Source: Podarcis gaigeae (Eukaryota). From it: a DNA stretch of 64,000 nucleotides. The stretch lies in assembly GCA_964106915.2 (NCBI GenBank), contig OZ066922.1; one strand, written 5' to 3'. The notes below the pieces were generated by a model. The model ran no database searches. It had not been told where the DNA came from and worked only from the letters and a program-made list of their open reading frames with translations. Below are positions 4,076-58,407 of the stretch, piece by piece. A program made the position numbers and the translations under genes. Every line of letters starts with the position of its first letter. The stretch's first letter is position 1.

Positions 4076-4615
4076 AAAACGTGGTGACAAAGCATGGGTC
4101 CACATGGATCCTCAGGATTTTTGCATTGGGTCACCCCAAATTCACCATCAGATCACATAGCATGTTCATGGCTACATCTTGCACCAAAAAAATCACGCAC
4201 CCACTGTTGCCTAGGGTCACAGTGGTGCAAAAACGTGGTTATAAAGCACGGATCCACATGGATCCTCAGGATCTTTGCATTGGGTCACCCCAAATTCACC
4301 ATCAGATCACATAGCATGTCCATGGCTACATCTTGCACCAAAAAAATCACGCACCCACTGTTGCCTAGGGTCACAGTGGTGCAAAAATGTGGTTACAAAG
4401 CACGGATCCACATGGATCCTCAGGATCTTTGCATTGGGTCACCCCAAATTCACCATCAGATCACATAGCATGTCCATGGCTACATCTTGCACCAAAAAAA
4501 TCACGCACCCACTGTTGCCTAGGGTCACAGTGGTGCAAAAACGTGGTTACAAAGCACGGATCCACATGGATCCTCAGGATTTTTGCATTGGGCTACTCCA
4601 AACTCACTGTCAGAT
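4076..4615. repeat. 154-bp tandem repeat, about 3.5 near-identical copies, inside the hAT element
   Basis: CACATGGATC recurs at 4101, 4255, 4409 and 4563. Confidence 0.95.
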
Positions 4616-6083: not shown

Positions 6084-6949
6084 TTTATTTTTCCCCAGTA
6101 CATTTTTATTCAAATTATGCAAAAAAACAACAACATAACAGTATAAATAAATATAAGATATAGAAATAAACATAAACATACCGGTAGCTATATCAGTATA
6201 CATATAAATATAAGTATAATTCATTTACATAATTTATTATTTCCCTTCCCCAAAATATACAAAAAAAATATAGAAGAAAATCATAATGTTTTAGGCTCTA
6301 CCGAGCCTTGGACTCCCCTCCACCCTTTTGGTAAGTATCGAATAAATTCCGGAGTCACATATTTGATTTTTAATTTTAGAACCAATCACTGTTAGAATTA
6401 TTCCAACCCCGCCAGTTCCCTTTAAAAATTTGTTCCAATATATTTCCAATATTTACTCCAATTTTTCTGAAATTTCTGTTCATCTTGGTCTCGTATTCTA
6501 CCTGTTAGTCTATCAAGCTCGGCGTAGTTTACCATTTTAACCTGCCAATCACTTATGCTGGGTATAGTTTCCGTTTTCCAGTTTTGTGCCAACATAGTTC
6601 TTGTGGCTGTGGTGGCTTAAGAAATATTGTCTTATCTTCTTTTTTAATTTCTTTGCCCATCATTCCTAGCAAAAAAGCTTCAGGTCTTTTGGGAAAGGTA
6701 TATTTAAGTATTTTTTAAAGCTAATTGTAGATTAATTCCCAAAAGCCTTTCACTTTGTTGCATAGCCACCACATATGGTAAAAATCGCCTTCCGCTTCAC
6801 CACATTTCCAATATCTCTTATTCTTTAACCTGTACATTTTGGCCAATTTCACCGGCGTATGATACCACCTGTATGTCATTTTCCAGATATTTTCTCTCAA
6901 TGCCATACACGCCGTAAACTTTATATTACTATTCCACAGTTCTAACCAC
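6084..6949 (-). mobile_element. Second L1 nested in the first
   Basis: 21-bp TSD CTGAAATTACAAGTACTTTTA at 6063-6083 and 6950-6970; ORF LRENIWKMTYRWYHTPVKLAK...WKC...HMWWLC. Confidence 0.85.
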
Positions 6950-7164
6950 CTGAAATTACAAGTACTTTTAAAACCCTGCTAATGTATTAACCTGTGTACA
7001 ATGCTTCTGTATATATGCAATAAACATCTTCCATTCTTCCTTAAATTCATTGTCGTCTCTGTTTCTTAGTTTCACTGTCAGTTTTGCCATTTAACTTGCC
7101 AATCTTCTTTAGTTAGGGCACCATCTTCTTTCCAAAGTTGTGCTAGTAATGTCCATGTGGCGGT

Positions 7165-7402
7165 TGTTGTTGTTTAGTCATTTAGTTGTGTCCGCCTCTT
7201 CGTGACCCCCTGGACCAGAGCACGCCAGACCCTCCTGTCTTCCACTGCCTCCCGCAGTTTGGTCAAACTCATGCTGGTAGCTTCGACAACACTGTCCAAC
7301 CATCTCGTCCTCTGTCGTCCCCTTCTCCTTGTGCCCTCCATCTTTCCCAACATCAGGGTCTTTTCCAGGGAGTCTTCTCTTCTCATGAGGTGGCCAAAGT
7401 AT
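7165..7402 (-). mobile_element. BovB (RTE) LINE 3' end
   Basis: [36 protein letters not shown] and a (CAA)n tail; approximate TSD TGGCGGT(T/A)GTTG. Confidence 0.9.
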
Positions 7403-8800
7403 TGGCGGTAGTTGCATACATAAATAAATAATGTTGCGCGTTTGGTAAGTCCACTTCTGTAATACCTAGTAGGAAAGCTTCTGGATTTTTTTTTAAACAA
7501 AGTTTATTTTAAACATCTTCAGTTCATTATAAATCATTTCCCAATTTTTTTTTTATAATTTTACAATCCCACCACATGTGGAAAAAAGTCCCTTCTGTTA
7601 TTTTACATTTCCAACACTTGCTTTCCTTAGTTTTATACATTTTTGCTGGTTAAGTACCATCTATACATCAATTTCATGTAATTTTCTTTAATCGCCACAC
7701 GTGCTGTAAATTTAAACTAATTCTTCCATAATTTTTCCCATTCCTCCATCTGAATATTATGTCCCACATCTTGTGCCCAATTAATCATAACTGATTTAAC
7801 CTCTTCATCTTTTGTTTCCCATTCTAGCAACAGATTGTACATTTTTGATATTAACTTTATATCATTTTCTATTATTTATCTCTGAAAAATTGAAATCCTA
7901 TCTTTTTATGATTCTTAAATATTTCATTTAACTGTAAATATTGTAACCAATCTGTTACATTCTCTTTAACTTTGTTAAATTCTTTCAATTTTAATTGACT
8001 TTCTGATTCTATTAACAACTCTCTGTACGTAGCCCATATTTATCCCCTCCCCCCCCCCCCCGATATTGCCTCTAGTGGAGAAAGCCACCATGGTGTTTTT
8101 TGTTCTAGTATTCCTTTATACTTCTCCCAAACTTTAAATATTGCTTTTTTTATAATATGATTTTGAAAACTTTGATGTACTCTTGCCTTTTTGTACCATA
8201 AGTATGGATGCTAGCCAAATCTATTGTCATGACCTTCCAAATCTAATTGATCTGTATTTTTTAATTTTATCCCTTCCCGGATCCAACAAATACCGTACAT
8301 TTGTATTTGTTGGGTGCTAGACATTTCTAATCCCCTGGAATCAGCAAATTTTAAGACCTAATTAAGCTAGGCTAAGCTTCCCATGTCCAGGAAATAGCCC
8401 GGTTGAAGGGCCATTAAGACTCAAAGGATCAAAAGGACTTGGTGTGAGACGTGGTGCCTTTCCCTAAACAGATAAAGCCAGAGCTTAGAGAGGTTAGAAT
8501 CAGGAGTTGTGTGACTGAGATGCAAAGCAGCAGAGAACAATATCTGGTGTCTGTCTGGATCCAAGGCTGTGCCCATGGGAGAAGCAGAACCCCCTCGGAG
8601 TGCCGATGCAATGAACCCCTCCATCATTGGGGCTTCCAAAAGGAACCACTGGGATCTGGCACTCTTGAGATTGGGGTGGTATACAGCAATAGGTGTGATA
8701 AGTTGCCTGCCCTTCACCCTAAGGTCCCAGGGCGGTTTACGACAATTAAAACGCCATGTTAAAAGCAGTTTAAAAGCACCACAGATATAAGGTGGGTTCT

Positions 8801-9245
8801 TTTTTTTTTTTTTAAAAAGTAATATTTATTAAGGTTTTAAGGATTACAAAAAGCAAAAGTAAAAACACCATATTAAACAAAAATCTTCCTCCACCGACTC
8901 TTCTCCCTGGTCTCGGATTCTGCCAGTCATTTCCGCCAGTTCCATGTAGTCCATCACCTTCATCTGCCATTCTTCCCGGGTAGATCTTGTGTCTTCTAGT
9001 GCTTTGCAATAAGTATTCTTGCTGCTGTTGTAGCATACATAAAGAAAGTTCTATCCTTCTTTAGCACCAATTGGCCGACCATGCCCAGGAGAAAGGCCTC
9101 TGGTTTCTTCAGAAAGGTATATTTAAATACCTTTTTCATTTCATTATAGATCATCTCCCAGAAAGTCTTAATCCTTGGGCATGTCCACCAAAGGTGAAAG
9201 AATGTACCTTCAGTCTCTTTACATTTCCAACATTTATTATCGGGC
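8801..9245 (-). mobile_element. Short, internally deleted L1 fragment with a ~30-bp flanking duplication
   Basis: TAAAA(G/C)CACCACAGATATAAGGTGGGTTCT at 8771-8800 and 9246-9275; poly(T) at the left end; closely similar to the L1 at 56780-57140. Confidence 0.85.
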
Positions 9246-9979
9246 TAAAACCACCACAGATATAAGGTGGGTTCTACACCTGTCCACCCCAGGTGTCAAA
9301 CATCCTGCCTGTCTCATCCTGGCTCTGTCCTCTCTATGAACCCACAGGCTGACCCACTCGGCTTCTGCCTGGAAATGCCCCCCAAGTGACGCTGCTCTTG
9401 CCAAGGCAGAGCAGCTGCACTGAGCGGACACCTGTAAAGGAAGCACCTGGGTGATTGGGCTTGCTGGGGTTGCCACAGGATCCTGTGGGGCAGCCAACCA
9501 GAGGGAGCCGCTCCAAGGGGAACCAGGGCCTGAAAGCGAAGCAGGGGCAGAAGTGGGTCAGCCCCCTGCTCAGCCGAATTCCCCCTTCTGCTGTCCTTGC
9601 CTCAGGCCAACTTCCTTCAGGTAGAATGAGCTGGGTTTGGCAGTGAGCAGCTTATTCCTGCCATTCAAGGAGCTCTCAAATGAAGCCCCCCCCCCCCCTT
9701 TCACAATCTGCCGCTCCAGCCCTCCAAGGAAGCAGCAGCTGCAGCCTCTAATCCGGAGGCCTTTCACCAACCTGACCTACATTCTCCGTCCGGAGAACAT
9801 GGGAGCCGCTTCAGACCCCCCCCCCCCCCGCCAGCTGGAGATGCGCCACCATCACTCTCGCCTACTTCGGATCCAGACGCCGGTCCAGAAGCATCTTGCA
9901 ACCAGGAGCAAGAGCAGCCTCTGGGCTGAGCAGCCTCGCCTTGGCACGGGCAGGATCTGGCCCTGCCCACCCCCCACCC

Positions 9980-29560: not shown

Positions 29561-32500
29561 GGATGCACATGGAATCTACAGCCTCTGCTTTGCCCCCGGT
29601 GGGGGGCAGCTGGCAGCCGGCTTTGGCAACGGCTCTGTGCAGGTGAGCGGGGACAGGGGGCAGCTCCCAAGTGGGCTTGCAGGGTGGAAGATGCGGAAGG
29701 GGTTGGCCTGAGGGGCTCTTGCTGGCGGATTGAGGGTGAGGGGACCTCTGGGGGCAATTGAGCCGCCCTGGGCTCTCCCCGCCTTAGCCCAGTGGGTGGA
29801 GAGACAGCCGAAACTCCTGCCCCCCTCTGCATGGGGCCCCATCTACCCTGCCCTCCTCTCCTTCCCCCAGCTGGTGGATGCCTCCAGGGGCTTGCCCGGC
29901 CCCTCCTTGTTCCCAGGGCACCGCACACGGCAAGCGGTCACTGCTCTGAAGTTCCACCGGGCGAAGCCAGGCCTGTTGCTGGCTGCTGGGGCGGATGGCA
30001 CCATCTCCATCTACGACCTGCTCTCACACTACCCTCTGGCTTCCTGGACAGGTATGGTGGGGTGGGGTGGGGTGGGGAGGGAGTCCAGCCCTCAGGCAGT
30101 GGGCCTAGGCTGGGGGACCCCTGCTGCTGCCCTGGACCTCCCCTCTCCTTGTGCTCCCCAGAGACAGAGAACGAGATCAACGCGATGGACTTCTGCCGGG
30201 ACGGAAGCTCCTTTGCCACAGCAGGCAAAGATCGCCATATCCGACTCTATGACAGCCACACCAACCAGGTGAGCCTGCAGTGCTGGTGGCCTGAGATCTG
30301 GAGATCTGCACCCTCTGGGTCCGTGGGATGCTCTTCGTCCGCCTGCCTCTAACGCTTCTCCCCCACTCTGCAGCTCTTTCACATCATGCATGCCCCAGAT
30401 TTCATGGCCGGGGATGAGTTCACACCCCTCAGCGGACACTCGCGGCGGATCTTTGCCTTGCGCTTCCACCCCACAGAGCTGCATCTCTTTCTGACGGGTG
30501 GCTGGGATAATTCTGTCAAGGTCAGTCCTCGGGAAGGCAATCTGTGTGCACGTGCACTTCCTGACCTTCTCTTGCTGATTTTCTGCACCTGTGGGGGGCA
30601 GTGGGTGGGGACCGGCCTCTGCCTCCTGCATACAGGGGGATACACAGTTCACCCTTTTGCTCTTCCCTGTGCCAGGTGTGGGACAAGCGGGTGTCCAAAG
30701 GTGCAAGGAGTGTGATCAACGGGCCTCACATCTGTGGCCCCGGGATTGATGTGAAGGTGAGGAGCTGGAAGGAGGGGAGCTGGGTTTCCCCCTCTGCGGC
30801 ACAGCGGTTCAGAAGAGCCTCACTGGCTCATCACTTTTATCTAGTGGGGCTATCATGGTCTAGATTTTTATTTATTTACTTATTGGACTTTTTGTCCAGG
30901 TTTCTCTTTCAAAAAAGCCCCGGGTGGCAGAACAGAAAAACTACAACAGAAAAACTTTAAAATATGTTTAAACAATCACACACTTTCACTGCTAAATAAT
31001 ATAAAGGTTGCCAGAAATGATGGAATTCAGGCATCAAGCGTCTGGGTGAACTGAGATGCTTTAACATCCTACCTAAATGTCCATAAGGAGGAAAACAGGT
31101 GCATCTCACCAAGGATGGGGGCATTTCATAAGCAAGAAGCCGCTCTGGAGATGGACTTATGGAGGGTCGGCACCAGTCGGGTACCCCCCCCCGCCTGCAG
31201 TCCCACCATCAGGACCTCCTCCTGCCAAGTGCAAGGTCTGAGGTGGTCCCTCTTGGAAGGGGGCATCCCTGAAGTCCTTCGACCCCAAGCCACTTAGGTT
31301 TTTGTATGGTAGTTCTTGGTTCTTTTAGGATTGGTGACCAAGGGCTCCATTCGTTGAGCTGGTGGCCCCCTTCTGCACTCCGTGCAGCTTCCACACACCT
31401 TCATTCGTTGAGCTGGTGGCCCCCTTCTGCACTCCGTGCAGCTTCCACACACCTTCAAGGGTGGACCCACATGGAGCATATTGCAGTAGTCCAAGCGGGA
31501 GTTCCCTGCAACTATTGCAGTTGAGGAAAAGCTGTGGCTGGCGGAGTCTTAGCCAGGTCCAAGCACTCCTCCACAGAGGCTGGTTGGCCTTCCAATGACT
31601 GGCATCATGATTAACTGTATTTATATAGCACCATCAATGCACGTGGCTTTGCACATTTAAAACAAGAAATTGAACCCTCAAGAGTGCAATCTAAGAACTG
31701 CAGTCTAAGAATTGCGAGAAGGGTTGCTCAGCGACTGATCTCCTCATGTTGCTATCTCTGGCGGAGGAGGGTTTCCTGCTTGTGGGTTTCCCTGTGGGGC
31801 ATTTGGCTGGCTGCTGCCAGAAGAGGGACTGGCGGGCTCACTGGCCTGACGGACCAGGCTCTGCTTCTGCTCTTAGTCCCACCGAGAGGGAGGAGGGAGG
31901 GCAGGGACGGGGGGCGGCAGCCTGTGCCGTTGGCCACTGTGAGAAAGGGGTGCTGGGCTTGCTGGGCCCCTTTTGGCCTGATCCGACAGGCTCTTCTCTT
32001 CCCAGAGAGAGGAGGCCACCAGAGAGGGCCTGGGCTAATGCCTTGGGGGGTGTGCCTGCACATGCTTTTGAGCCAGGAAGCCCGGGAGGGAGACTCAGCA
32101 GAGTTGACTTGTGCCCTTCTCTCTTCCTCACGTAGGGAGACCAGGTCCTGACGGGCTCGTGGGTACCCCGCAATGCCCTCCAGCTCTGGGACCTGCGCCT
32201 GTCTCGCCTGTGGCAAACCCTGCCCTTCCCCTGCAGCCCCACGCAGGGAGAGTTCCTCTACTCGGCCCAGTTTTGCATGGGGGACGTGGTGCTGGCTGGC
32301 GGCAGCGGGACCAGTGGGGCAAGCGCCATCCACATGGGCACAGGCCAGGTAAGAGGACCAGCAGCTCAGGATCCTGCGCCTGCTGAGTCACGTTGCCTCC
32401 TCTGCTGGCAGCCCCACTCCCAGGGCTGAAAATGGAGATGGGGGGTGAGGGGTGGAGCCCACCTGCATCCTTCCCCACACAAGGCACATGCCCTGAACCG

Positions 32501-40500: not shown

Positions 40501-43500
40501 AGCTGCCCTCCGCCCCAAAGCTGTGCATCTCCTTCGCTCACAGCAGCAGAAGACTGTGGCTCTGGAGGCCAATTCAAGGATGCGGCCGCACTGGGGGCAG
40601 CTTCAGAGACATCGACAGGGAGGAAATAAAAAAGGCTGGGAAGCTGAGAGGGGGCTGCTGAGCATGATGGGGGTCATTATGGAGGATGAGAAAAATGTGG
40701 CCAGATGGGGGCATGGAGACACATGAATGCCAGTAATTTTGTATCTATCTCTGAAAAACCAAACCTCAGACTCGGTGCCCCACTGACCAGGTATTTCCAG
40801 ACATTCACCACGCAGTTCCGGGAGTCATCCCAGGCCAGGCTCCGGAACATCAGCTTCAGGTGGGCCCACCCGAGGAAGCCCCCGCAGTGCAGGAGGGTCA
40901 ATTTGCAGCTCTGCAAGCAGAGGGAAAGCCAGGGGGTCACCCAGGGAGGAGGAGAGGCAGCTGCACTTGATCCAAAGAGACGCTCCAGAAGACGGCTCCC
41001 CTCGCTTTGCCAGCAGCCGGTATCTCCTTCCCTCTCTGCTCCCCTCCCTGTTGGCTGCCCAGATTCAGGCTGCTTGGTCAGGAGAGATGCTAGGAAGAAG
41101 GAGCGCTAGCTCACCATGGCCAAGTCACCAGCCCAGGACTGTCTGCACGGACCAGCAGCTCTCTCCGAGGTTTCAGGTAGTGGCCTTAGCAGAAACTGCT
41201 GGGAGGCAGCAGGGATTGAGTCTGGGACCCTCTGGGTGGGGGCTGCCCTGTGGAGTGGTGCCCATTTCCCTCAACCCTAAGGGAGATTCCAGCTGGATCT
41301 ACATTGATGCTCTAAACGTCTTAAATTAAAACGTTCTATAAAGCTTAATAGGAGTTTCCCATTGTCACGAATATCTGAGAGATATTGAGTGAATCCAGAA
41401 AATGATTAGAGTGAAAGGAGAGTAAAGCCAAGATAGAAGAAGAGATTAAAGAAATAATGAAATGCGTTTAAGCTAGATGGACAAATAAAGTAGTGTAACA
41501 GGAATGGCTGGAAGTCAAGTCACTTGGTGGGTGTCCGTGAGGTGTGTAGGTATGATGATATGTACAGTATAGGTAGGTAGTATATAGAGTAATGTAGGTA
41601 TGTTTTATGTTATGAAAATAAGGTAGTGTGTTGTGTATGTGTATTGTGTAAATGTATATGTATGTTGTTTTATATGTTAATAATTTTTTTAAAAAAGGAG
41701 TTTCCCATTGTCAGAGGCTTTTTTATTAAATTACGAGTGTCAATCAGTCCTCCACTGCTCACGATGTAAGGGGAGCAGTTTCCCAAAAGCTGCCTTTCAG
41801 TGAGTCAGACTATCAAGTCTGCCTAGCTCAGTGCTGCCCACACTGACTGGCAGCAATGGCTCTCCTGGCTCCAGGCAGGGGTCTTGCTCAGCCTTCCCTG
41901 CAGATGCTGCCAGGCAAAGCATCTTCTGCATGCAAAGCAGGTGTCCGTGACCCCAGAGCGCTGGCCTCGCCAGTGTGCTGGGCCTGCGGATCTGAGGAAA
42001 GGGCTGGGCTCCCTCCCTCGGGGACACTGAGGCTACTTGCCATGGCTACTGTGCCGTCTCGGTCCTTCAGGTGGAGCAGCAGAGAAAGGAGGCTGTAGAG
42101 GACTTCCTTCCTCAGGAGAGGCTTGTCTGCTTCTTTGGCCTTCATAACCAGCTGCCCAAACAGGGAGATGGATGCTGCACGGACGGGGCCTCGCTCCTGG
42201 GAGGGGGAACACCAAGGCGGAAAAGAGGCACCCAGGTCAGGGCCAGGACAACTGCGCAACACAGGGCGGAGATGCAGGAAGGTGGGTCCGGGGGGGGGCA
42301 CTGGGTGACAGGTGCTTCTCGCCCCCCAGCTCTTGGGGGCACTGTGCCTTCTCCAGCACTGTTTAACCGGTGGCCACTGGGATCGGGGTGGAGGAGAAAT
42401 GCATTTTGGCTTGCACCTGAAGCCAAATCAATCAAATCCACACTTTCTAAAGCAATGTGAGAACAGAACCATCCTTTGAAGTTCACATATATTCAAATTA
42501 TGTGATGCAATTCTCCAACCACTGTTTTCAAAATGCATACTTTGGGCAAAAGTGTGCACAAAAATGAAGATATTAGGGGAAACAACTGTCAGAGCTGCCT
42601 CTAGGTCCCAGCTCACAGAGGACCAACGCTAGGCTGTAGTAATGTACAAAAGTCTTTATTGAAGTTCAGTTTCCATTTCAAAGCCACAGCGTGCAGCTCT
42701 ACGTCTTAAACCCTAGATCGGCGAAGTCCCGTCTGAGTCTCCTCCCCTCTGACACCAGTTTAAGATCCTAGCCCTGCTCCACCTTTTCCGCTGCTCTCTC
42801 CTCCTCTGGGTCCTCCTGCCCGCTGGGGCATTGCCCTTTCTGGACTCTTCTGACGCTGAGTCGCTTAGCTCCTCCCCCTGCCTCCGGCGGGCTTTAGGAC
42901 CCGGTTCCCAATCCTCATTCTCTGCTGTCCCGCGCTCCTGTACATTTGAACTTGCCTCTCGCGCCAACCCAGTGACCTTTCTCCTAACCGTTACACTACT
43001 TCTGTCACTGCTTCCCTCTTCCGTGATACTGGCCGGATCTGACCTCCCCTCCGTTGTCCGACTCTCCGTGGTCAGCCCTGCCTCGTCTTCTCTCCCTGGT
43101 GGGGAATGCACTGACCCCGATACTTGGGACTCTTCCCCCCCACTCTGCTCTTGTGGGGAAGCTGGTCCTGATTTCCAACTACTGCTCTGGGAGTCCCTGC
43201 TGCCCCCTTGCTCCTGGGGCGTTCCCCTTGGGAACCCCCTACCCCTGGCCACTGGCGCCCCCTTCTGTGAATCTTCCGATTCGCTGGAGAGGCTCATGGA
43301 ATCCCTCGGGCCACTGTCCTCTTCTCCTACGCTCCCCTCGGATTCTTCCCCTTCGCTCTCCATTTCCTCTCTTCCCTTTGCCTCTGCTCCTGAGCCCCTG
43401 ACAACAACATTTCTCAAAAAGATTTGAACCTGTCCAGGCACTCAGGGGAAAGCGTCTCTGCCTCCAGGCTCCCTTCTCTGCCCTCAACTGGGTGCCTAAG

Positions 43501-46500
43501 CAGCAGCAAAGGCAGTGGCCAGAGGAGAAGAGGCAGGCCCACCCCCTCCCTGGAGGCCAGGGGCCCTCATGGCTGACGCTGACCCTCGAGGCGCTGGCTG
43601 CCTGGCCTTGCGCCTTTGCAAACATCCTCCTTCCCCAAGCGTCCCCCACTCACATCTTCGAAAAAGGAGCGCACATTAAGGGCCAGGTCCATGCAGAGGG
43701 GCCCGATCCCCTGGCCGTCCATCTCGTAGATGGCAGTCATGATGTCCTGCAGACCCTGCAGGATGTCTTGTTCGTGGCCACTGAAGACGGAGCCAATCAG
43801 GGTGGGCAGCTCCTCACGGAGAACCTTGACCTGGGGGGGGGAGGGAGAGAGGGGGGAGGGGCTCAGCATCTGCCACTCACACCAGCCACATCTGTGAGGG
43901 GTGTCAAGCACCCCCTTGCTCAGACAGCCTCCCAACTGCTTCCTCTCCCATCCCAGCTTTGTCCTGACCAGAAGTATTTATTGCCTTGGCAGAGCACCAA
44001 GATGTGGGTAGGGAGGAGAGTGGGCGAAGGCAGGGACACCCCCACCCACCAGGGGCTGGGTGAGGCAGGAAGCAAAGGCTTTGAAGGAGCGGAGGAGGTT
44101 TTTGGGGGAGTCCTGCTGACTCCTGATCTGAGAGGGTTTTCCTGGCTAAAAACTGAACCCCCCATGCCCCCAGAGTCTGCTGCAGCTGCGCTGGCAAGAG
44201 GCTGGCAGGACACTGGCTGTTCCTTCTCCCTGGTGCTTGTTCAGGATCTCCCTTTGGCCCTTTGGCCTGGGGGTTAGGGGCAAAGGGGCTGGAACTGCTT
44301 GGCCACCCCCTCTTGGAAGAGGCTACCTCCCCCCTCCCTCCAGGAGGCTGTGTCCCAGAGGGAGCCTCACCTGAGCTGAGCACAAGGGGCCCAAATGGAA
44401 GCCCTGTTGTGGGGGGCAGAGCATGAGGCCGCTCTTCAGCTCCTGGGGCCCTCCAAGCTCCAGCTGCTTCCTGGGACCCCCCCTCACCTTTGCCGGCTGG
44501 AAGACAAAGCTGCCAAGCCCCTTCAAGCACAGCTCCTTGATGATGGGGTTGGCGGCTGCTGATCCTTCCTCCAGGTGGTCTCGGAGGCTGAACCGGTTCA
44601 TCATCTTGACAGCAGATGGGCTTTTGAGGAACTGAGAGGCAGGAGGGAAGGCTGAGCGGAAGGACCCCCAAGCCCTGATGGGACCCCCTCCCACAGAGAC
44701 GCCAAGAGGCAGTCTGAGAGGAGGCGAGAAACGACTCAGTGAAGCCCCCCCCCCCCCGACTTGCCCTGGACTCCAGGGCCGTCCTTGCGAGAAACCCCTT
44801 TCCCCAGCCCTCCGCTTGCCCTGGCCACTCAGGGCTTCTGAGGGGTGGGAGGAAGAATCCAGCTGGCAGCTGCCCCTCTGCCCCCCTGGCACCGCCTCAC
44901 CTCGATGACGAGAGCCAGCGCAGTCATCTTTTTCATCTCGTCCTCCTCGCTGTTGAGGATGAGCGCCGCTTCCCCAAAGATGCCGGGGATCTGGGGGCTG
45001 TCGCACTCGGTCATGGCCCTGCTCAGGTGACAAGTGGAGAAGGCAGGATGCCTGGGGAGGGCCAAAGTGGGGAGGAGGAGCAAAGGCAGCGGAGAAGGGG
45101 AGCCGGGGAGCCGAGGGGGACCTGCACCCCCCAGGAAGGAGGCCTGGGAAGAGCTGCCTGGCAGGGCTTCCCCTCACCTGGCCATTAGGCGAGTGCCTTG
45201 CAAGAAGCGATCCGGGGTGCTCAGCACCATCCATCCCTGCTGGAACTCAATGCAGGCATAGACGGCCCAGTCTCCAGCCACAGAGAAGAGGTTCTTCATG
45301 ATCTCTACTGAAGTTCTGCAAGGGACCACCAGGAGTCAGATCTCCCCAGAACTCCCCCAAACTCTCCTCCTGCAAGATGCTGCCTTGGGGCTGGCTCTGT
45401 GATGAGGCAGAGAGGCAGGTGCCTCAGGCGGCAGGGGCTGAGGGGAGGGGACTGCGAGGGCCACATCGCCTGCCCTGTAGCCGCCATGCTAGCCTTTAGC
45501 CCTCAAGGGCGTGGGAGATGCTGTCCTTTCACCAGCACTGGAGTGAGATCCGCCTGCCAATCCAAAGGGCATCTCTATGCGCCTGGGGGGAAGGTACCAC
45601 CTTGCCCTTCACCTCATGCAGCAAAACGTCTTGAGAGCCAGCTCTGCTGCCCCATTTCTGAGCAGAATGTGGCAGGAAGAGAAAGCCAGAAGCCTCCTCC
45701 AGGCACCAGTGAACTGCGGCTCCCAAGTCCAAAGGAAGAGGCTTCTTCCCATTTTTAGGAGACGCTGCATTTAGCAACGACTTGAGAACAGGCAGGTGGA
45801 CTCAAAGGCCCCTCCTTCCCCGCTTTCCGCACAAAGAGCCCCAACCCACTTGTTGCATCAGCTCTTTCCTGCCTGCTGGAGGGGGCGGCCTCCATGGAGC
45901 AGGCAGAAGGACCTCCTGTCATGCTGCACCACACAGGCCCCCCTGCCTGCATCCCCCCTCCAGTTCTTCCTGCTGCAGGGCAGGACCCTCCCTGCCCCCC
46001 CCCACAACAGACGCACACCGCTTCCTGCTGGGGACCAGCCTGCCCAACCTTCCCTTACGGATCCTGTCAGGTACCTCTGGAAGCTGAGGGCACTGGTGTT
46101 TTCTCTGAGGAGGATTTCCTGCCTGACTTTCAAAGAGTCGGGCAAGTCCAGCTGCATCACATACAGGACCTGCTTGAGCAACGGGATGAACAACTGCAGG
46201 TGCATCTCTGCCAAGGCTTTGCGGTATCCTGGGATGTGGAAGGTCTCGTAGATGACATTCATGGCCTGGAGAAGAGGAGCACCAGGCACTTGTCCTCACT
46301 GGGCCTCTGCACCCAGCAGCTTATTCTTCTGGAACATGCCATGTCCCCTCAAGGCCATTCACGCCACTGTCGCCTGTCTCCAAGTGCCAGTGCTCACACC
46401 CAAGAGAGAGGGAGGGGCCCTCTGCCTAGAGAAGACCAGCTTCCCACCCGCCATCAGTGGGACACAGCCAGGCCAGGCCCCATTACTCACAGCCAGAGAC

Positions 46501-49500
46501 ATGGTGGCACTTTCTTCGTTGCTCTCCAGGGGATCCTTGACCTGAAGGTGCTTCAGCAGGAGCTGCAGGACTTGGATAGCCACCTGGGGGCCAGAAGCCA
46601 TCACTGTCCAGAGCTCGTTGGCGTGCCTGTGAAGTCAGCCCCGCGGAATGCAGGATCAGTCAGTGGCTTCCCCTGGGAGGAGCAGCAGCAGGGAGCAGAG
46701 CATGGCTGTGGGGGGCAGCCTAGCCACGGTTACCCAGAGAATCAAGCAGCCTACCTGTTGACAGGTATTGAGAAGGACAGGCAGCTCCGCATCACCTCCT
46801 CCATGTGGTAAGGGACCATGAAGGCCAAGGCCCTCAGTACCACCTTCCGGGTCCAGCAGGAGTGCTGGCACTGCTGCAGACACAGGTAGATGGCACCAAC
46901 GATGTCTTTCACCTGGGAGAAGAGAAGCGCTGAAGGCGGCCCAGCAGAGCTGCCGCCCTGTGAAGTGTGGCCCAAACCCAGGTGCCCCTTGGGCTCTCAG
47001 GGGAGGAGTCAGGCCAAGGCTCCTTGTTCTGGCCAGCGCCAGAGATGTTTGGGTCCAAATGCTCTTTGGTTTATGTGAGACCTCAACACACACACTCCAT
47101 TTTTGGCTTTTGTGTCTCAGTGGGGTTCATCATTTGCAAAGGGAAGGCAGCTCTAGCTCCTCAGTTGGAGTCACTGAGCCAGCAGGGTGGAGCAGAGGCT
47201 CCCAGGCTGAGGGACTCTTCTGACCATTAGCTATCTGAAAAGGGGAATCCCCTCACGCAAACCTGCCTGAGCTCTGAGGTTCCAGGGGAGGTCCTTCTGT
47301 TGGTCCCACCACCCTCCCTGGCATGCTTGGTGGGGAGGCAGGACCTGGCCTTCGTGGTGGTTGCGGCTCCCAGGCAATTTTAGAACTCCCTCCCTAGAGA
47401 AGCCATACTGGCTCCCTCCTTGTTGTGCTTCTGCCAGCAGGTGAAGACCTTCTTGTTCCAACAGGCTTTGGGGGACTGACTGCTTTTAATGAAAGGGCTG
47501 GTGCCATGCTGCTTTTATTGTAATTACTTGCATGGTTTTAAAAGACTTTATATATGCATAGAGTTTTACTTCTATCAGTGTTCTGCATTCTGATGACTGA
47601 TTTTTCTATATTTTTAGCTGTTCTTGGTTTTATCTGCAAGCTGCCTTGAGTCCCATCAGGGGAAAAGGTGGGGTATAAAGAAATCTAGAATGATAGTCAT
47701 AATCACCCTTTCCACCTTCAGTGCATGGTTCTTCAGAACGGCATTGAGCACTTCCTCTGCAGCCTTCAGCAGCTCAGCGTTGGAGCCTCTCAGATTATCC
47801 AGAACGGAGAGCAGGAAGTTTGTCAGCTGAGACGGGAACAGGTGGTCCTCACAGTGCTGCAAAGAGTAAAAGGTAAAATGATGGGCCGGACCCACCAGGA
47901 ACCCTCCCTGCTCTGGAAGCGTCCTGGGTTCAACCCCAGAAGCATCTCCAGATGAGAGGACCAGGGAGTAGCAAATGAAAGATCGCAGGACAGACCCCAG
48001 TGAGCCTGAGGGACCGCAATGCCCAGCCTGGCATAAAGGCAGCCTCTTTGGGGCCTTCTTTCAGGAGCAAACAGCTCATGGTGGACGCCTTTTCCTTGCC
48101 ACCCTTTGCTCTCATTTTAAACATCCCATAAAAAACGCATAATTGTTCCCTTCTTAAAAGCTTAGATCTACATCCCCTTGGGAAGGCAGTGAGAGGAGTA
48201 CGGCTGCTCTGCAGGTATGAGGCTGTGTGAGCAGAGGTGGATTTAGGGGAGCACAGCTGCTGGGTGAAGAGCCTTGGGGGTGCTTCAGGAGATTGAAAGG
48301 CAAGAAGTGGTGTGGGGAGCCGAATTTTGGTGTCGCACAGGTCCATGACTGGTGGGAGATGCTGGGTGGTTATCCACATGGTCATAGGGACCAAGCAGAA
48401 CCTTCTTGTTCTGGGAAAATTTTGGCCAAGCTAGAGTATTATTATATCAGAGATCATAGTCCAGAAAATCTGGAGGTGCCTGCCCATCAGCTGCTCCACG
48501 TGAACCCCCACCCTGACCCTCACAAGGACAAAACAATGTTTTTTGTTGGCTGCAGGCAAGTGCCAGGCCCCTCTCCCCACATCACCACCAGGGATCCATG
48601 CCATTGGGGTGGGGCTGGCATGGGATTCAGTTGGAGCCCATGCACAGAAGCCCAGGGGTCTGGAGCCTGGGGGGGGCACTTGGTGCAGGGCACCTGCAGG
48701 GCACCACCTGAACCTCCCTCCTCCCTCCTATAGATCAGAGATCATGTCCAACATTTTTTGTGGTCCTTAATGCTGGCTTTGCACCCCTGCTGTCACCACC
48801 ATGACCCACTCTCATGGCTCCACAGGGGGTGGCATGGGTTTGTGTGTCTGTGCCCGGTCCCTGCTCTGCTGTGCAGGGGGCAACGCATCCTGAGAGGCCC
48901 CCTGCTGCTTTTGCAGAGGCCCCTGATAGTTGCTGCCAACACACACTTTCTAGGGCTGGGGGAATTGTCTGGGTGACACGCAGAGCTGGATTCTGAAACC
49001 AGCCGCCATGGCTGAGCTGTCTGTCCCTCTGTGCGCCAGGGGACTTGTCACCATACCATGGCCATGTGCCAGCTGCTCTCTGGAATCAGAAAAGAAAAGC
49101 CATCCTCTTCCTGGGACCTCGAGTACCTCCTCACTGACCACCTCATCCTCTTCTGCTTGCTCTTCTTCAGCGCTGTTGAAGGAACAGAGGGAAAAGGAGA
49201 AGACTACTCTGGGCAGCAGCGACTTCAGCATTTGCCAGAAGCTGCATATTGAAGATGCCAGGCAGGCACACCCTTGCAGGGAGGGACTTCCACAATTTAG
49301 GGGCCGCCACACAGAAGACCCTCTCCCAGGCCAAGCCTCCAGCTTCTGCAGGTGGAGGAACTACCAAGAGGGCTCCCTCCACGCAACATCTCGGAAGGAG
49401 GCAGCCTTCCAGGTATTTGGGGCCCGAGTCATTTAGTGCCCTAAACACCAATGTAAATGTGGATTGGACCCAAAGGGTGGTCTTTAAGAAATCAGTCTGA

Positions 49501-52500
49501 CACGGCTGACACCCCCTCGCCCCCTGCAGGTGCGATGGGCAACTGTGGGCTCTGGCTCACTCACTATCTGGGCACAGCAGCAAAGAATCACAGAATTGTA
49601 GCATTGGGAGCAATGCCAAGGGCAATCTAGCCCAGTCCCCTGCAATTCAGGAAGCACAGCTAAAAAGATGTGGTGGCGGTGGCAGATCCCCCATGTCTTA
49701 CCTTGCCGACGCAGCAGGACCTCATAGAGGCAACTGACTCCTTGCACCGCAAAGGAACTGATACGCTGCACCGGATCATTGCACAGAGTAATCAGGACAG
49801 CTGTCAGATGAGCCAACTTGCAGAATTCCCCTGAGAACTGATTTACAGAAGGGAAGGGAAGGAGCTGCTGGCAAGGCACCCTCCGGGCTTCAAGGTGGTG
49901 CTGCCTGCTGTTGTGCATGGACTGGGATGCCCACTGCGGCGACCCAACCGCCACAGGACACATGTCTGGAAGCAGCTTGAGCAGGATCAATGCCATGCGT
50001 GCTCAGGAGAAATGCCAGGGGAGTCTGAGTGTGTCTGCTTGAGGGGAGCATTGACCTCCCCCCTCCACAAACCCATGCAGAGTCCAAAGAGGCCTTCATG
50101 GATTCTACCAACGCCCTGAGTCATCATCATCATCATCATCACCATCACCATCACCATCACCATCATCATCTTATTATTACTAATTCAAATTATAAACCAC
50201 CCTTTATTCAAAGATCCCAGGGCAGTGTACAATATTAAGAACTTAATTTACACAGCATAATAAAAAATAATAATACAGAGCATAATAAAACACAGCATGA
50301 TAATAAAATAATCATAATAGCACCCACCCACATGTAACAGGCCATAGATTGCTTAATGGTGAAGGCCTGGGTAAAGAGGACATGTAAAGACATCCAATGA
50401 TGTTGCCAGGTGAGCCTCTCAGGGGGGGAGCATTCCACAGTTGGGGAGCCACCACAGAAAAGTCCGGTCCTGGTCGTGCAAGAGAGCTAACTCTCCTGAA
50501 CGCCCCTGACAGTGTTGGAGGTTTGTCTGGATGCTGCAGCCACCGCTGTGGAAACATCTTCTGCAATTCCCACTGAAGGGGGGCAGAAGAGTCCTCAGGC
50601 CATGCGGGGCTGGAGCAAACAGCCCAGCACCATCCTGGCCCTGTTTTCCTCCCTAGGGAGCCAAGGTTTCCTCTGCCCCTTTCTGCCAGGCGCTGCAATG
50701 GGCTCCAGGGGGCACCGTGCCATATGTGGACAAAGGGGGCAATGAGGAAGGGGCTCAGTAGCCCTAGGGCTGTCCCTGCTGGGCTTCTGGCTGGGAGTGC
50801 GTGAGGAAGAGAGGCCTATTCTGGGCCCAAGGAGACTTTGCTGATACTCACGTCTGAGTGGAAATGTGTAGCGACGAATTTCAAGAGCTTCATGGCTGTC
50901 TCCACAGCATTCTCTCGCACATGGTTGACTTTTGCCTTCATCCAGGGCTCCATGAGCTGGAAGACAAAGGGGAAATTCAGGAAATGTGTCCTGGCTGAAG
51001 TCTGGGACTGAAGTTGAGGGTTGCAGACAGCGCTTCTCTTCCATCAGATTTTGCAGAATTAGCAGGACCAATTATTGGGTGTGTGTTTGTTCCTGTTAGC
51101 ATATTAGCAGTCACCTCTGCATCTTAGAAAACAAATGATTTATGTCACTAAACATGTCTCTGAACACCCCCTGCCCCCTTCAGAGATCTGCTTGGCATCC
51201 TGTGATGTGTGGCCTAAGAGGAGAGAGCCTGAGAACTACAAGAGGTGCCAGCACTTGGCAAAGGCACCAGAGCTCCTTCCGCTGCCCCCTCTCTAGCCGC
51301 ACACCCCCAGCATTGGTGCCCAGGGAGGCGGGCAGGTGAGGGGCTCTGGCACCAGCTCCCATGCTGATGAGCATGCAAAGGATCATGCTGCTTGCCTCAC
51401 CACCATTGCATTCCTTTGCATTCAGTCATACCTCCATCATGTGCTCCAGCTCACTTGGGCTTCGGTTTTCCAGCAGCAGGGCCTGCAACATCTCTTCAAA
51501 GCTGCTGATGGTCTGGAAGTAGAGTCCCTGGAGCAGAAAGAGGCAGCTGCCATTAACCTTGCACAGCCCAACAGAAAAGAGGCATGGGGGCTCTCTCTCT
51601 CTCTCTGTGTGTGATCTACCTACCTACCTACCTACCCCTTGCTAAGAGTTTGTGGGGTGCAAGACATCCTAAATCCCTGGATACAATAACAGAATGAGTC
51701 AGGCTTGGGCGAGTTAAACTGTTCCAGGCACTGAACCCCTGGATAAAGTGGTTATGTTAACAATACAAGCCAGGCCAAATTGGTCATCGCTTCCTGAGTG
51801 TGGGTCATTCAGGAAACAAAGCCTAAAGAGGTAGTTAGCAGGGGACAGAGTTGTGATGTGCTGACAAAGCCTGTGACAACTGTAGGAAGGAGTCAGAGAG
51901 CAGGGCTGATTTCTGTTTTGGATCCAAAGCTATTGCGCCTATTGGAGAAGCAAGATCTCTGGAGCTCAGGTTGTGTACATGGGTAAATGAACCATATACC
52001 ATAAAGATAGAAGGGGAAGAAATGGCGGCAGTAAGAGATTTTACTTTCTTGGTTGGGTTCCATAATCACTGCAGATGGTGACAGCAGTCACAAAATTAAA
52101 AGACGCCTGCTTCTTGGTGAAAAAGCAATGATAAACCTAGACAGCTTCTTAAAAAGCAGAGACATCACCTTGCCAACAAAGGTCTGTATAGTTAAAGCTA
52201 TGGTTGTCCCAGTATGTATGTATGTATCGCCGAAAAACTGATACTTTTGTATTATGGTGCTGGAGGAGACTCTTGAGAGTCCCATGGACTGCATTGGAAC
52301 TAAGTGGTTTCTAGCTGTGATGGGTTAAAAGAATATGAAAAAATGGGTTTATATAAGTAAAAATCTAAGATTGTAATAATTTAAGAATAAGATCTGGGTA
52401 ACAAAAAGAGGGAAAGAAATTGTTGAATTAATAATTTGATTTGGAATACAAAAAAGGGTGGTATGAGGAGGTCCGAGAAACAAGTAAATGAAAAATAAGG

Positions 52501-55500: not shown

Positions 55501-58407
55501 TACTTTCTGAATTAAAATCTTTAAACTATATTATGAGGCAGCAGCTTTTTGCTGGCTGAAGGAATGGTTACTTCTTGAGAATACAGACACTGTCAGAGCT
55601 GCCTCTAGGTCCCAGCTCACAGAGGACCAACGCTAGGCTGTGGTAATGTATAAAAGTCTTTATTGAAGTTCAGTTTCCATTTCAAAGCCACAGCGTGCAG
55701 CCCTACGTCTTAACCCCTAGATCGGCGAAGTCCCGTCTGAGTCTCCTCCCCTCTGACACCAGTTTAAGATCCTAGCCCTGCTCCACCTTTTCCGCTGCTC
55801 TCTGCTCCTCTGGGTCCTCCTGCCCGCTGGGGCATTGCCCTTTCTGGACTCTTCCGACGCTGAGTCGCTTAGCTCCTCCCCCTGCCTCCGTCGGGCTTTA
55901 GGACTCGGTTCCCAATCCTCATTCTCTGCTGTCTCGCGCTCCTGTACATTTGAACTTGCCTCTCACGCCAACCCAGTGACCTTTCTCCTAACCGTTACAC
56001 TACTTCTGTCACTGCTTCCCTCTTCCGGGACACTGGCTGGATCTGACCTCCCCTCCGTTGCCCGACTCTCCGACGGAGGCGTGGTCAGCCCTGCCTCGTC
56101 TTCTCTTCCTGTTGGGGAATGCACTGACCCCGATACTTGGGAACCTTCCCCCCCACTCTGCTCTGGTGGGGAAGCTGGTCCTGATTTCCAACTACTGCTC
56201 TGAGAATCCCTGCTGCCCCCTTGCTCCTGGGGCGTTCCCCCTGGGAACCCCCTGCCCCTGGCCACTGGCGCCCCCTTCTGTGAATCTTCCGATTCGCTGG
56301 AGGGGCTCATGGAATCCCTCGGACCACTGTCCTCTTCTCCTACGCTCCCCTCGGATTCTTCCCCTTCGCTCTCCATTTCCCCTCTTCCCTGTGCCTCTGC
56401 TCCTGAGCCCCTGACAGACACTCTTGATTTGGAAGGACATGATAATGTTTTTGGATGGCATGCACACTTGTGGTACGGTAAGGACAAAGCACATAAGGCG
56501 TTCAAAAACCATATTGTTAGAATTGTTAGAAACCAGTGACATAAGGTATTGTCGAGAATGTATAATCTGCTGTTGAAATGGAATACTGAGGATGAAACGG
56601 TTAAATCTGCTATGATAAAATGGGCACAAGACATTAGTCATAACATTATGTTTGCTGACTGGGAACGGTTGTGGACCACCGGCATGAAATTCACGGCATG
56701 TAATGCCTTAAGAGAGAATATTATGAAAATGATTTACAGGTGGTACATGACCCCAGTCAAGCTAGCAAAAATCTATCATTTGCCCGATAATAAATGTTGG
56801 AAATGTAAAGAAACGGAAGGAACATTCTTTCACCTTTGGTGGGCCTGCCCAAGGATTAAGGCCTTCTGGGAAATGATCTATAATGAGCTGAAAAAAGTAT
56901 TTAAGTATACTTTCCTAAAGAAACCAGAGGCCTTTCTCCTGGGCATGGTCGGCCAACTGGTGCCAAAGAAGGATAGAACTTTTTTTATGTATGCTACAGC
57001 AGCAGCAAGAATACTCATCGCAAAGCACTGGAAGACACAAGACCTACCCACCCTGGAAGAATGGCAGATGCAAGTAATAGACTATATGGAACTGGCAGAA
57101 ATGACCGGCAGAATCCGAGATCAAGGAGAAGAGCAGGTGGAAGAGGACTGGAAGAAATTTAAAGTTTATTTACAAAAACATTGTAAAATTTATGAATGTT
57201 GAAGGCATTGAAAATGAAATGAAGGGGTTCTAGTGATTAAGATAAATAAGAGTACAAAGGGAAGGATAAAGGATGAATTTGAATAATATGATATTGCTGA
57301 ATTAATTTTTAAAGTGGAATACAAGAAAGGAAGGCGGGTGGAAGCAAGGAAAATAAGATTTGGAAGGGTATTAACTTGAAAGAGAGTTTTTTTTATGCTA
57401 AATTTTCTTTTTTATGTTTTTATTTTCTTTTCCGTCTTTTTGTTTGTATTTTTGATGTGTGTGTTTGTTGTTTTTGCGATTTTATTTAATTTCTATTGTT
57501 GTTAACTTTTGTAAAATCTAATAAAATATGATTTTAAAAAAAATCTGGCAGTGATCTACTCCCATTTTGGGGGTGGGTGGGTGGTTCAGCTCATAGTTGT
57601 TGAGCTTTTGATCAGGTTAAAAGTTCTCCCCCCTTTTAACCAGGGAACAGATATTTTAATGGAGCATTGAATACAACTTCTTTTGAAGAAGTGCAAATAG
57701 CAAGCACCTTTTCAAGAGAGGCCTTCATTGTCGGTTCTTTGGCATGTATGTCTGCTATTATTTGGATACCAGTTGAAAGCACATTAAAACCTGCTCAAGT
57801 GTTTGGGTCATAAATTGGCTCTGGGATTCAACTGTTCTCTTGTTATGCTGCTTCTCATGCAATTTTTAGAGGTGTAATTGCTGGCTTTGGATGTACTTTG
57901 GATGTTGTGCCCCATGCCAGGCTCCTTGAGAAGGAAGAGCAAGATATAAATGAATAAAGTCTCTTTTAAGGTGATGCCTTTTGTAGCATACACATTGCTA
58001 TCTGGCATCAGGATTTCCAATTCATGTAGTTAACCAAATAAAATCAACTATTGTCTGAAAGCCCTAAAAGACCTGTTAAAATAAAGGGAACAAGAAAATA
58101 CATTCTTCATTTGAAAAGATCCAGTGCGAGTAATGTAGAGGCCATGTTTGTGGCTGATGCAGCCAGTTATTTGTGGCAGTGAAAATCAAACGAGGAGCTG
58201 CTCAGAATTTGGGGGAAAGTGCCCAGGTTGAACTGGTGAATGAACAAAAGGGGAGGCAAGGAGGTGCAGCTTCAATGTCTCACCAGAATAATGTCTGGCA
58301 CCACAGCTGCTGAGCATGGAGCCAGTGTTTCCTTTGAGCTTTTCCCTCAACCCACCCAGAGCCCTAGCCAGCAGTCAGCTCAATCCCTATTGATGCATTA
58401 CTATTAT

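Follow-up and report, generated by a model that had tools for sequence, protein, structure and literature searches.

A long open reading frame in a lizard solo LTR continues the pol frame of Tf1/sushi-type chromoviruses and is under purifying selection

Why should a solo long terminal repeat (LTR) consist almost entirely of an open reading frame (ORF), when the U3 part of an LTR is normally treated as non-coding promoter DNA? The question is raised by a stretch of 64,000 nucleotides from Podarcis gaigeae (contig OZ066922.1 of assembly GCA_964106915.2; hereafter the window), in which a sequence-only reading had noticed a solo LTR bearing an ORF of 216 aa and had proposed for it a stand-alone accessory protein comparable to sag or nef or, as a side guess, the tail of an internal ORF. 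With a probability of roughly 0.75, we consider the ORF to be the last ~230 codons of the pol (integrase) frame, which runs through the polypurine tract (PPT) into the 3′ LTR, is kept by purifying selection and likely provides the integrase with a long disordered tail. That this tail of Pol is under selection is highly probable in itself; a role in import or targeting, as its sequence features suggest, comes somewhat short of an even chance. The features of the window on which the argument turns are the following:

42587..43403, minus strand: solo LTR copy 1, 817 bp with TG..CA ends; the same LTR flanks the gag-pol elements L031-L033
43404..43408, minus strand: target-site duplication (TSD), upstream copy, GTTGT
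42582..42586, minus strand: TSD, downstream copy, GTTGT
42713..43402, minus strand: U3 frame of 229 codons plus stop, the C-terminal part of Pol/integrase in whole elements
42713..43363, minus strand: ATG-started ORF of 216 aa, the ATG being unconserved across lineages
42752..42781, minus strand: conserved C-terminal motif behind an Arg-rich run, the sole predicted helix; overlaps a TATA-like TCTTAAA (42765-42759)
42724..42734, minus strand: 11-nt self-primer AGACGGGACTT, complementary to the primer binding site (PBS) of whole elements; predicted to mark the transcription start and the U3/R border
42655..42660, minus strand: AATAAA poly(A) signal, 52 nt past the ORF stop
42753..43427, plus strand: open antisense frame having third codon positions in common with the sense ORF, a by-product of the latter
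55591..56416, minus strand: solo LTR copy 2, 826 bp, TSD GTGTC; frame as in copy 1, with a premature TGA at 55965-55963

The answer comes from whole elements. A genome search with the window's LTR, whose family we call family A, gave 2379 candidates, the 40 scored all being 97-100% identical, and LTR pairs about 5.9 kb apart were found to enclose a gag gene (CCHC finger, DUF4939, Ty3 capsid) and, in the -1 frame, a pol gene with protease (PR), reverse transcriptase (RT), RNase H (RH), integrase (IN), SH3_Tf2-1 and a weak Chromo match, and no env. Beyond the integrase, the pol frame reads through the chromodomain, some 155 aa of linker and a G-rich PPT, and then enters the LTR as D|V-R to become the U3 ORF. 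Family-A junctions were sampled by taking 70 of 103 pattern matches, 67 of which were scorable: 30 of these are in frame, 26 having the commonest length, and in-frame cases occur in every subfamily scored. Proteins of Podarcis muralis (P0006-P0009, 813-1498 aa) likewise run from the integrase into a tail that is 55-58% identical. A search with SH3_Tf2-1 revealed in addition three sister lineages, B, B2 and C, with Pol sequences 50-60% identical and different LTRs. In each of them, pol continues into the LTR through the same D|V-R frame, the part encoded in U3 comes to 71-109 aa, and the stop is close to the lineage's own self-primer; in all four lineages the C-terminus consists of a basic run and then L-x-[NC]-W. 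The side guess of the sequence-only reading, that the ORF might be the tail of an internal one, is thus borne out by whole elements, by Podarcis proteins and by sister lineages.

In lineage B, a single frame of 1331 aa is present in 98 of the best 150 SH3_Tf2-1 matches, and in 23 of 24 copies, picked for long frames, Pol ends 289 nt inside the 3′ LTR. Elements of this lineage (L116-L119, L190-L209) are 5485 bp long and dispersed over many contigs, and the two LTRs are identical in 21 of 24; lineage B is very young. In a midpoint-rooted tree built from the sequences of this analysis alone (no Sushi-ichi reference), the four lineages group together in a single clade (100/100), to which a lineage having a chromodomain with an intact aromatic cage and a Pol that stops before the PPT does not belong. 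The extension of pol into the LTR is, judged from these sequences, a design of the clade as a whole. No tRNA gene was found in 20 lineage-B loci, so that nothing in them points to tRNA-gene targeting.

Could base composition, in a U3 rich in purines and poor in T, account for the open frame, as the sequence-only reading itself feared, or could constraint on the promoter at the DNA level? The LTR is indeed 66% purine and 14% T, and under neutral substitution the ORF would stay free of stops in 4-26% of lineages. However, in 3000 shuffles each preserving mono-, di- or trinucleotide composition, performed on the whole LTR and on its first 693 nt, an open frame of at least 229 codons arose with a probability of 0.0003-0.010 and an ATG-started ORF of at least 216 codons with one of 0.0003-0.0013. 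The 129 distinct LTR sequences make up seven clusters that differ by 10-22%. Of these sequences 105 have the frame open, although protein searches bias this sample, and it is open in 34 of 67 3′ LTRs found through an internal DNA pattern. Between subfamilies, dN/dS amounts to 0.30-0.55 in 14 of 15 pairs and 0.77 in the remaining one, third positions being about twice as divergent as the others, while the +1 frame gives 1.3-2.3. The values are 0.36-0.56 when CpG sites are left out, with binomial p from 0.005 to 4e-5 in 7 of 7 pairs. Compared with five subfamilies at kappa 3, the window copy yields 0.39-0.62, and the bootstrap interval lies below 1 in 14 of 15 settings. Changes that arose after insertion offer a neutral control: the 125 differences between the 5′ and 3′ LTRs of 26 elements fall on codon positions as 39/45/41, with an omega of 0.82, or 1.12 without CpG sites. 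The proposed comparison of dN/dS between subfamilies therefore comes out at about 0.4 against 0.8-1.1 for post-insertion changes, and the indel-length check points the same way, the indels shared at subfamily level being in frame within the ORF (3, 24 and 63 nt), and of 1 nt beyond its stop. Furthermore, L-L-C-W is retained despite codon changes that abolish the TATA-like sequence, so that amino acids are conserved through codon change. Composition and promoter constraint are thus largely refuted as the source of the frame and retain only a very slight probability; the U3 ORF is under purifying selection at the protein level.

Its constraint resembles that of the adjoining part of Pol: dS in U3 (0.11-0.49) falls among the values for RT and integrase, and its omega (0.40-0.69, or 0.19-0.42 over the last 48 columns) is comparable to the 0.25-0.56 of the Pol linker that precedes the PPT. 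For the U3 frames of lineages B, B2 and C, dN/dS is 0.32-0.91 and significant in 6 of 12 pairs. The antisense frame, previously counted as 198 codons, spans 217 codons inside the LTR and 224 from stop to stop. A gene on that strand was rejected because synonymous-codon shuffles of the sense ORF yield equally long antisense frames (P 0.17-0.43, six subfamilies); moreover, the antisense stop shifts between subfamilies and any Met comes late in the commonest pattern of each.

The protein itself had been described as acidic at the N-terminus and Arg-rich at the C-terminus. It is Ser/Glu/Gly/Arg-rich throughout, with 14 D/E and 6 K/R among residues 1-60 against 6 D/E and 13 K/R among residues 166-216. 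Searches of Pfam gave no match and those of the ESM Atlas no usable one, one further search giving only chromodomain leads below 0.9. Sequence searches with the U3 protein retrieved five near-length matches, four longer ones and four representatives, all named ones being from Podarcis. The disorder that had been suspected is borne out as a prediction: AlphaFold models show a folded chromodomain, then disorder, and in the U3 part a single terminal helix, at low confidence outside the chromodomain (models with pLDDT 50 and 57).

The elements belong to Ty3/Gypsy, which settles the earlier alternative of Gypsy or ERV: they have TG..CA LTRs, a short TSD, gag and the domain order PR-RT-RH-IN, and the ERV assignment was rejected on this order and the lack of env. 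TSDs of 5 bp are identical in 21 of 26 whole elements and carry one mismatch in the other 5; in the same 26 the paired LTRs differ at 0-17 sites, and family A is therefore young. At the gag-pol overlap a heptamer, GGGAAAC or GGGAAAT, was present in 8 of 11 elements checked (GGGAAAC at L031:2251-2257, in an element whose gag also matches DUF4939), and GGGAAAC is, we presume, the -1 frameshift site of PEG10. The element primes itself, the PBS being able to pair with 11 nt inside its LTR. All 11 nt match in 23 of 34 5′ LTRs, with one mismatch in 10 and three in 1; the four primer types covary with four PBS types through compensatory changes, and the pairing is present in the predicted fold. The RNA would accordingly begin close to 42734, with about 20 nt left to the ORF stop and with the TATA-like TCTTAAA about 30 nt upstream, and because the self-priming site sets the RNA start near the ORF stop, the ORF lies in U3. 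The Chromo match behind the integrase has a Pfam E-value of 1.4e-9 in lineage B, where the domain is folded in the model, and a sub-cut-off 0.036 in family A. Compared by eye with the residues given in PMC3605345, the three cage aromatics of type I chromodomains are present in L120 and P0017; the first and third are lost in lineage B and all three in family A. As judged from this organization, the elements are Tf1/sushi-type chromoviruses with a derived tail.

Some observations on the distribution of these elements may be added. Contig C32 (29.5 Mb, about 2% of the genome) holds 40 of the 100 listed internal-region matches of family A, as against 1 of the 98 lineage-B copies with the full frame, and may be the W chromosome or another non-recombining region in which whole elements are retained. 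LTRs or elements of different subfamilies are nested or lie within a few kb of each other at L002/L003, L045 and L124, and L002 and L003 resemble an inverted segmental duplication on C32. At L180:1417-2472 there is an intronless gene of 351 aa with TFIIS N-terminal, central and zinc-ribbon domains, which we take to be TCEANC-like.

The self-primer and the junctions also bear on the accessory protein favoured by the sequence-only reading. Under that explanation, U3 would encode a separate protein with an ATG of its own, made from an RNA that is spliced or starts internally, in the manner of mouse mammary tumour virus (MMTV) sag or lentiviral nef. In its favour, the ATG (of MESE) is kept in 89 of 105 open copies, most family-A junctions have a second ATG in the PPT, and more than half of these junctions are out of the pol frame. 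However, the ATG is replaced by Thr in subfamily 6 and by Thr, Ile or Leu in the Podarcis proteins, nothing corresponds to it in B, B2 and C, whose U3 frame simply continues pol, and the presumed RNA start lies at the very end of the ORF. There is thus no conserved start codon independent of pol, and we regard a stand-alone protein as improbable. Four sequencing runs guessed to be RNA and available as contigs covered 25-30 of 30 whole-element bins and showed six joints, none of them GT..AG, and are uninformative on expression or splicing.

If the ORF is instead the end of pol, one can envisage how it would be expressed and used. Genomic RNA would start at the self-primer near the ORF end and thus hold U3 only at its 3′ end, where it would be translated as the end of Gag-Pol following the -1 frameshift. 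The U3 part would then endow integrase with a long disordered tail made of a Ser/acidic spacer and a basic end helix with L-x-[NC]-W, the latter predicted to serve in nuclear import or chromatin binding. Together, the cage-less chromodomain, one or two F-linker-FxGF motifs, the spacer and the basic helix may form an import and targeting module of the integration complex, in which the FxGF motifs would be docking sites for LEDGF/HRP2. We propose such an import-and-tethering tail because the cage is lost, the FxGF segment matches the TND-interacting motif (TIM), and the basic end is like the NLSs (nuclear localization signals) of Ty1 and Ty3; basic C-terminal NLSs are known in the integrases of both (PMC7175516). 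For the Arg-rich end taken alone, a role as an NLS or in RNA binding may be surmised from its composition.

The chromodomain probably does not read methyl-lysine, because cage aromatics have been lost, two in lineage B and three in family A; plant type II chromodomains are likewise devoid of cage residues (PMC3605345). Directly behind it, the pattern F-x(6-10)-FxGF was found in 12 of 12 genome copies, in tandem in 7, and in 15 of 15 proteins of the tail clade; it is absent from the frog protein P0017, and two outgroup proteins could not be parsed. Motifs of the FxGF type enable host proteins to bind the TND of LEDGF and HRP2 (PMC9987994; PMC7337902), and the tail motif fits the published LEDGF/HRP2-binding consensus S/E-x-F-x-G-F (PMC7337902). 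It has the sequence characters of a TIM, namely a hydrophobic anchor residue, a linker that is acidic or of Ser/Thr, and then FxGF; the two Phe are separated by 6-9 aa, which is short by comparison with the 8-16 given in PMC9987994. The unbound model shows no helix before the linker at pLDDT <50, and such helices may form only on binding. A sequence search of the PDB with the FxGF segment gave no match. The host genome encodes two LEDGF-family domains, presumably those of LEDGF and HRP2, and introns interrupt the host IBD; neither the genome nor three metagenome loci yielded an unspliced LEDGF domain. From the motif, it is likely that the FxGF segments dock on LEDGF/HRP2. A wider scenario, in which the clade has dropped the reading of histone marks by its chromodomain and has gained both a host-type FxGF binding LEDGF/HRP2 and an LTR-encoded basic helix for import or nucleosome contact, is put forward tentatively, as the odds seem to us rather against it.

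Another possibility is that the tail is made within Gag-Pol, is then cut off by the protease and acts alone in the particle as an RNA chaperone or chromatin tether, for which p12 of murine leukaemia virus (MLV) would be an analogue. A long disordered, charge-segregated sequence with an Arg-rich end would suit such a role. However, no cleavage site was identified, and in plant CRM elements the extension encoded by the LTR is presented as belonging to the integrase (PMC3059260), so that we deem a cleaved tail unlikely, if somewhat less so than a separate accessory protein.

Several observations weigh against an integrase tail that is encoded in U3 and serves import or targeting. Among the 67 family-A junctions, 37 are out of frame through length changes in four G-runs, and junction and U3 frame are both open in only 14. 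The database proteins and the 24 lineage-B copies were chosen by tail similarity or ORF length and are hence in frame. Selection is weak, with an omega of about 0.4 in U3 versus 0.1 for RT, and dN/dS is not significant in the other 6 of 12 pairs of B, B2 and C. The transcription start is a prediction from the self-primer. The shuffle P for FxGF (0.001-0.006) is optimistic, since the pattern was defined after it had been sighted, and FxGF lies outside the LTR and leaves the U3 part itself unexplained. Flanks of young lineage-B copies average 43% GC and give no hint of gene-dense targeting. The outgroup is represented by old, decayed copies (L120-L122).

The shifted junctions could be understood differently if the G-rich junction were a slippage switch giving a long and a short integrase, so that out-of-frame elements would be functional. 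One pattern of shift does recur 14 times across subfamilies, and the four G-runs could form a G-quadruplex. However, the in-frame junction length is the most frequent (26 copies) and shorter ones become progressively rarer (23 copies at -1 nt, 9 at -2 nt), different runs are affected, and a single junction is common to all 24 young B copies, albeit in a selected sample. Such a switch therefore appears doubtful, about as improbable as the accessory protein. The G-run changes differ between copies and are seen in each of the two best-sampled subfamilies, and we read the shifted family-A junctions as decay at G-runs of a pol frame that ends in the LTR. Assembly error is unlikely to be their sole cause, the G6 and G7 runs being uniform in the 24 young B copies. 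In four DNA runs at the pol-LTR junction, no G-run indel was listed at a level of at least 5%, the contigs being too short for this to weigh either way. The PPT region (L075:1550-1595 and equivalents) is itself protein-coding, has four G-runs of 5-7 nt in a G-quadruplex-type pattern and is where family A elements mainly lose the frame.

In the window, the picture drawn by the sequence-only reading proved largely accurate. The solo LTR at 42587-43403 on the minus strand has TG..CA ends and GTTGT on either side; its ORF runs from ATG 43363 to TAG 42713 (216 aa), within a frame open from LTR base 2 (229 codons); and the stop, placed at about 50 nt before the poly(A) signal, is 52 nt from it. Copy 2, at 55591-56416 on the same strand, retains the frame with an in-frame 9-bp difference and one CGA>TGA change, the latter creating the premature stop at 55965-55963, and the 9 bp are a deletion private to copy 1 (1 of 129 LTR sequences). 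The solo LTR is a relic of recombination that carries the frame passively, and its ORF is probably not translated: since the self-primer puts the transcription start at the ORF end, a solo copy would be unable to transcribe the ORF from its own promoter.

Around the two copies, exon-like frames flank copy 1 at 41888-50002 on the minus strand, with a HEAT_Maestro match at 49487-50002, which suggests an MROH-family gene with copy 1 lying in one of its introns and on the same strand. Neither of the two frames nearest to copy 1 has a Pfam match. Adjoining copy 2, a frame of 220 codons at 56540-57202 on the plus strand, also without a Pfam match, has related fragments at about 6650-9250; we take it to resemble the C-terminus of a LINE ORF2. 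Elsewhere in the window there are a tandem array at 4076-4615 (period 154 bp, copies 94-100% alike) and a weak WD40 match (E 0.002) at 29715-30272 on the plus strand, probably an exon of a WD-repeat gene.

If the ORF is the end of pol, a large solo-LTR family, with 2379 search candidates, is nearly all integrase-coding and has promoter, self-primer and stop codon on the same bases. The layout also explains Podarcis database entries named 'Gypsy retrotransposon integrase-like protein 1' or 'hypothetical protein'. To our knowledge, nuclear entry and target choice of vertebrate Ty3/Gypsy elements have been little studied; the tails supply short, named motifs, and lineage B is young enough for its insertions to be mapped before selection filters them. 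Should the tentative scenario of exchanged chromatin contacts be true, a vertebrate retrotransposon would have converged both on the lentiviral tether of HIV integrase, by way of the host partners' own motif, and on the layout of plant CRM.

How, then, do these elements compare with known systems? MMTV sag and lentiviral nef also overlap the U3 of the 3′ LTR, but they are separate proteins from spliced or internally started RNAs, whereas the lizard frame is continuous with pol and no env is present. The Tf1/sushi V-clade shares 11-nt self-priming, gag and pol in two frames, the order PR-RT-RH-IN and a chromodomain after the integrase (PMC6317226; PMC7175516). In the canonical lineage of this type in the same genome, Pol stops right after the intact-cage chromodomain, whereas the tail clade goes on for 190-390 aa, into the LTR. 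The available text of a modelling paper on Sushi LTRs contains neither 'ORF' nor 'open reading' (PMC3601003), and no vertebrate chromovirus whose pol enters the LTR turned up in the literature covered, nor did any TIM in a retrotransposon; Butler et al. 2001, Repbase and Dfam, which lay outside that coverage, may mention the overlap. Host motifs binding the IBD of LEDGF/HRP2 (DPF3a, JPO2, IWS1, PogZ) consist, as here, of a Phe, an acidic or Ser/Thr linker and FxGF in disordered sequence, sometimes in tandem (PMC9987994; PMC7337902; bioRxiv 10.1101/2023.01.30.526367), and the tested DPF3a peptide ends in STFHGFDEDD where P0007 has STFHGFDSDE; unlike these, the lizard FxGF sits in the integrase tail of a retrotransposon and is known from sequence. 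Among PDB entries, Pol of lineage B matches Ty3 Gag-Pol best, and there is a likeness to Ty1 and Ty3 in the basic integrase C-terminus, in addition to which CK2 phosphorylation is described for Ty1 and a vestigial chromodomain in non-histone contact for Ty3; the consulted parts of these accounts describe neither LTR-encoded tails nor FxGF motifs (PMC7175516; PMC9673352; bioRxiv 10.1101/2021.07.27.453949). The closest parallel in layout is group A of the plant CRM elements, in which pol likewise enters the 3′ LTR, which there encodes the CR targeting motif (PMC3059260). CRM group A uses a tRNA-Met primer and has the CR motif in place of a chromodomain (PMC3059260; PMC3605345), whereas the lizard elements have a PBS complementary to their own LTR rather than to tRNA-Met, a cage-less chromodomain upstream of the PPT and a disordered LTR-encoded part of 70-230 aa. 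They thus have a CRM-A-like layout without being members of CRM-A, and the likeness, compared by layout with no CR sequence aligned, is most likely convergent. The entry of pol into the 3′ LTR is, then, already known from plant CRM, and the U3-encoded tail described here is a real, selected and self-primed vertebrate variant of it.

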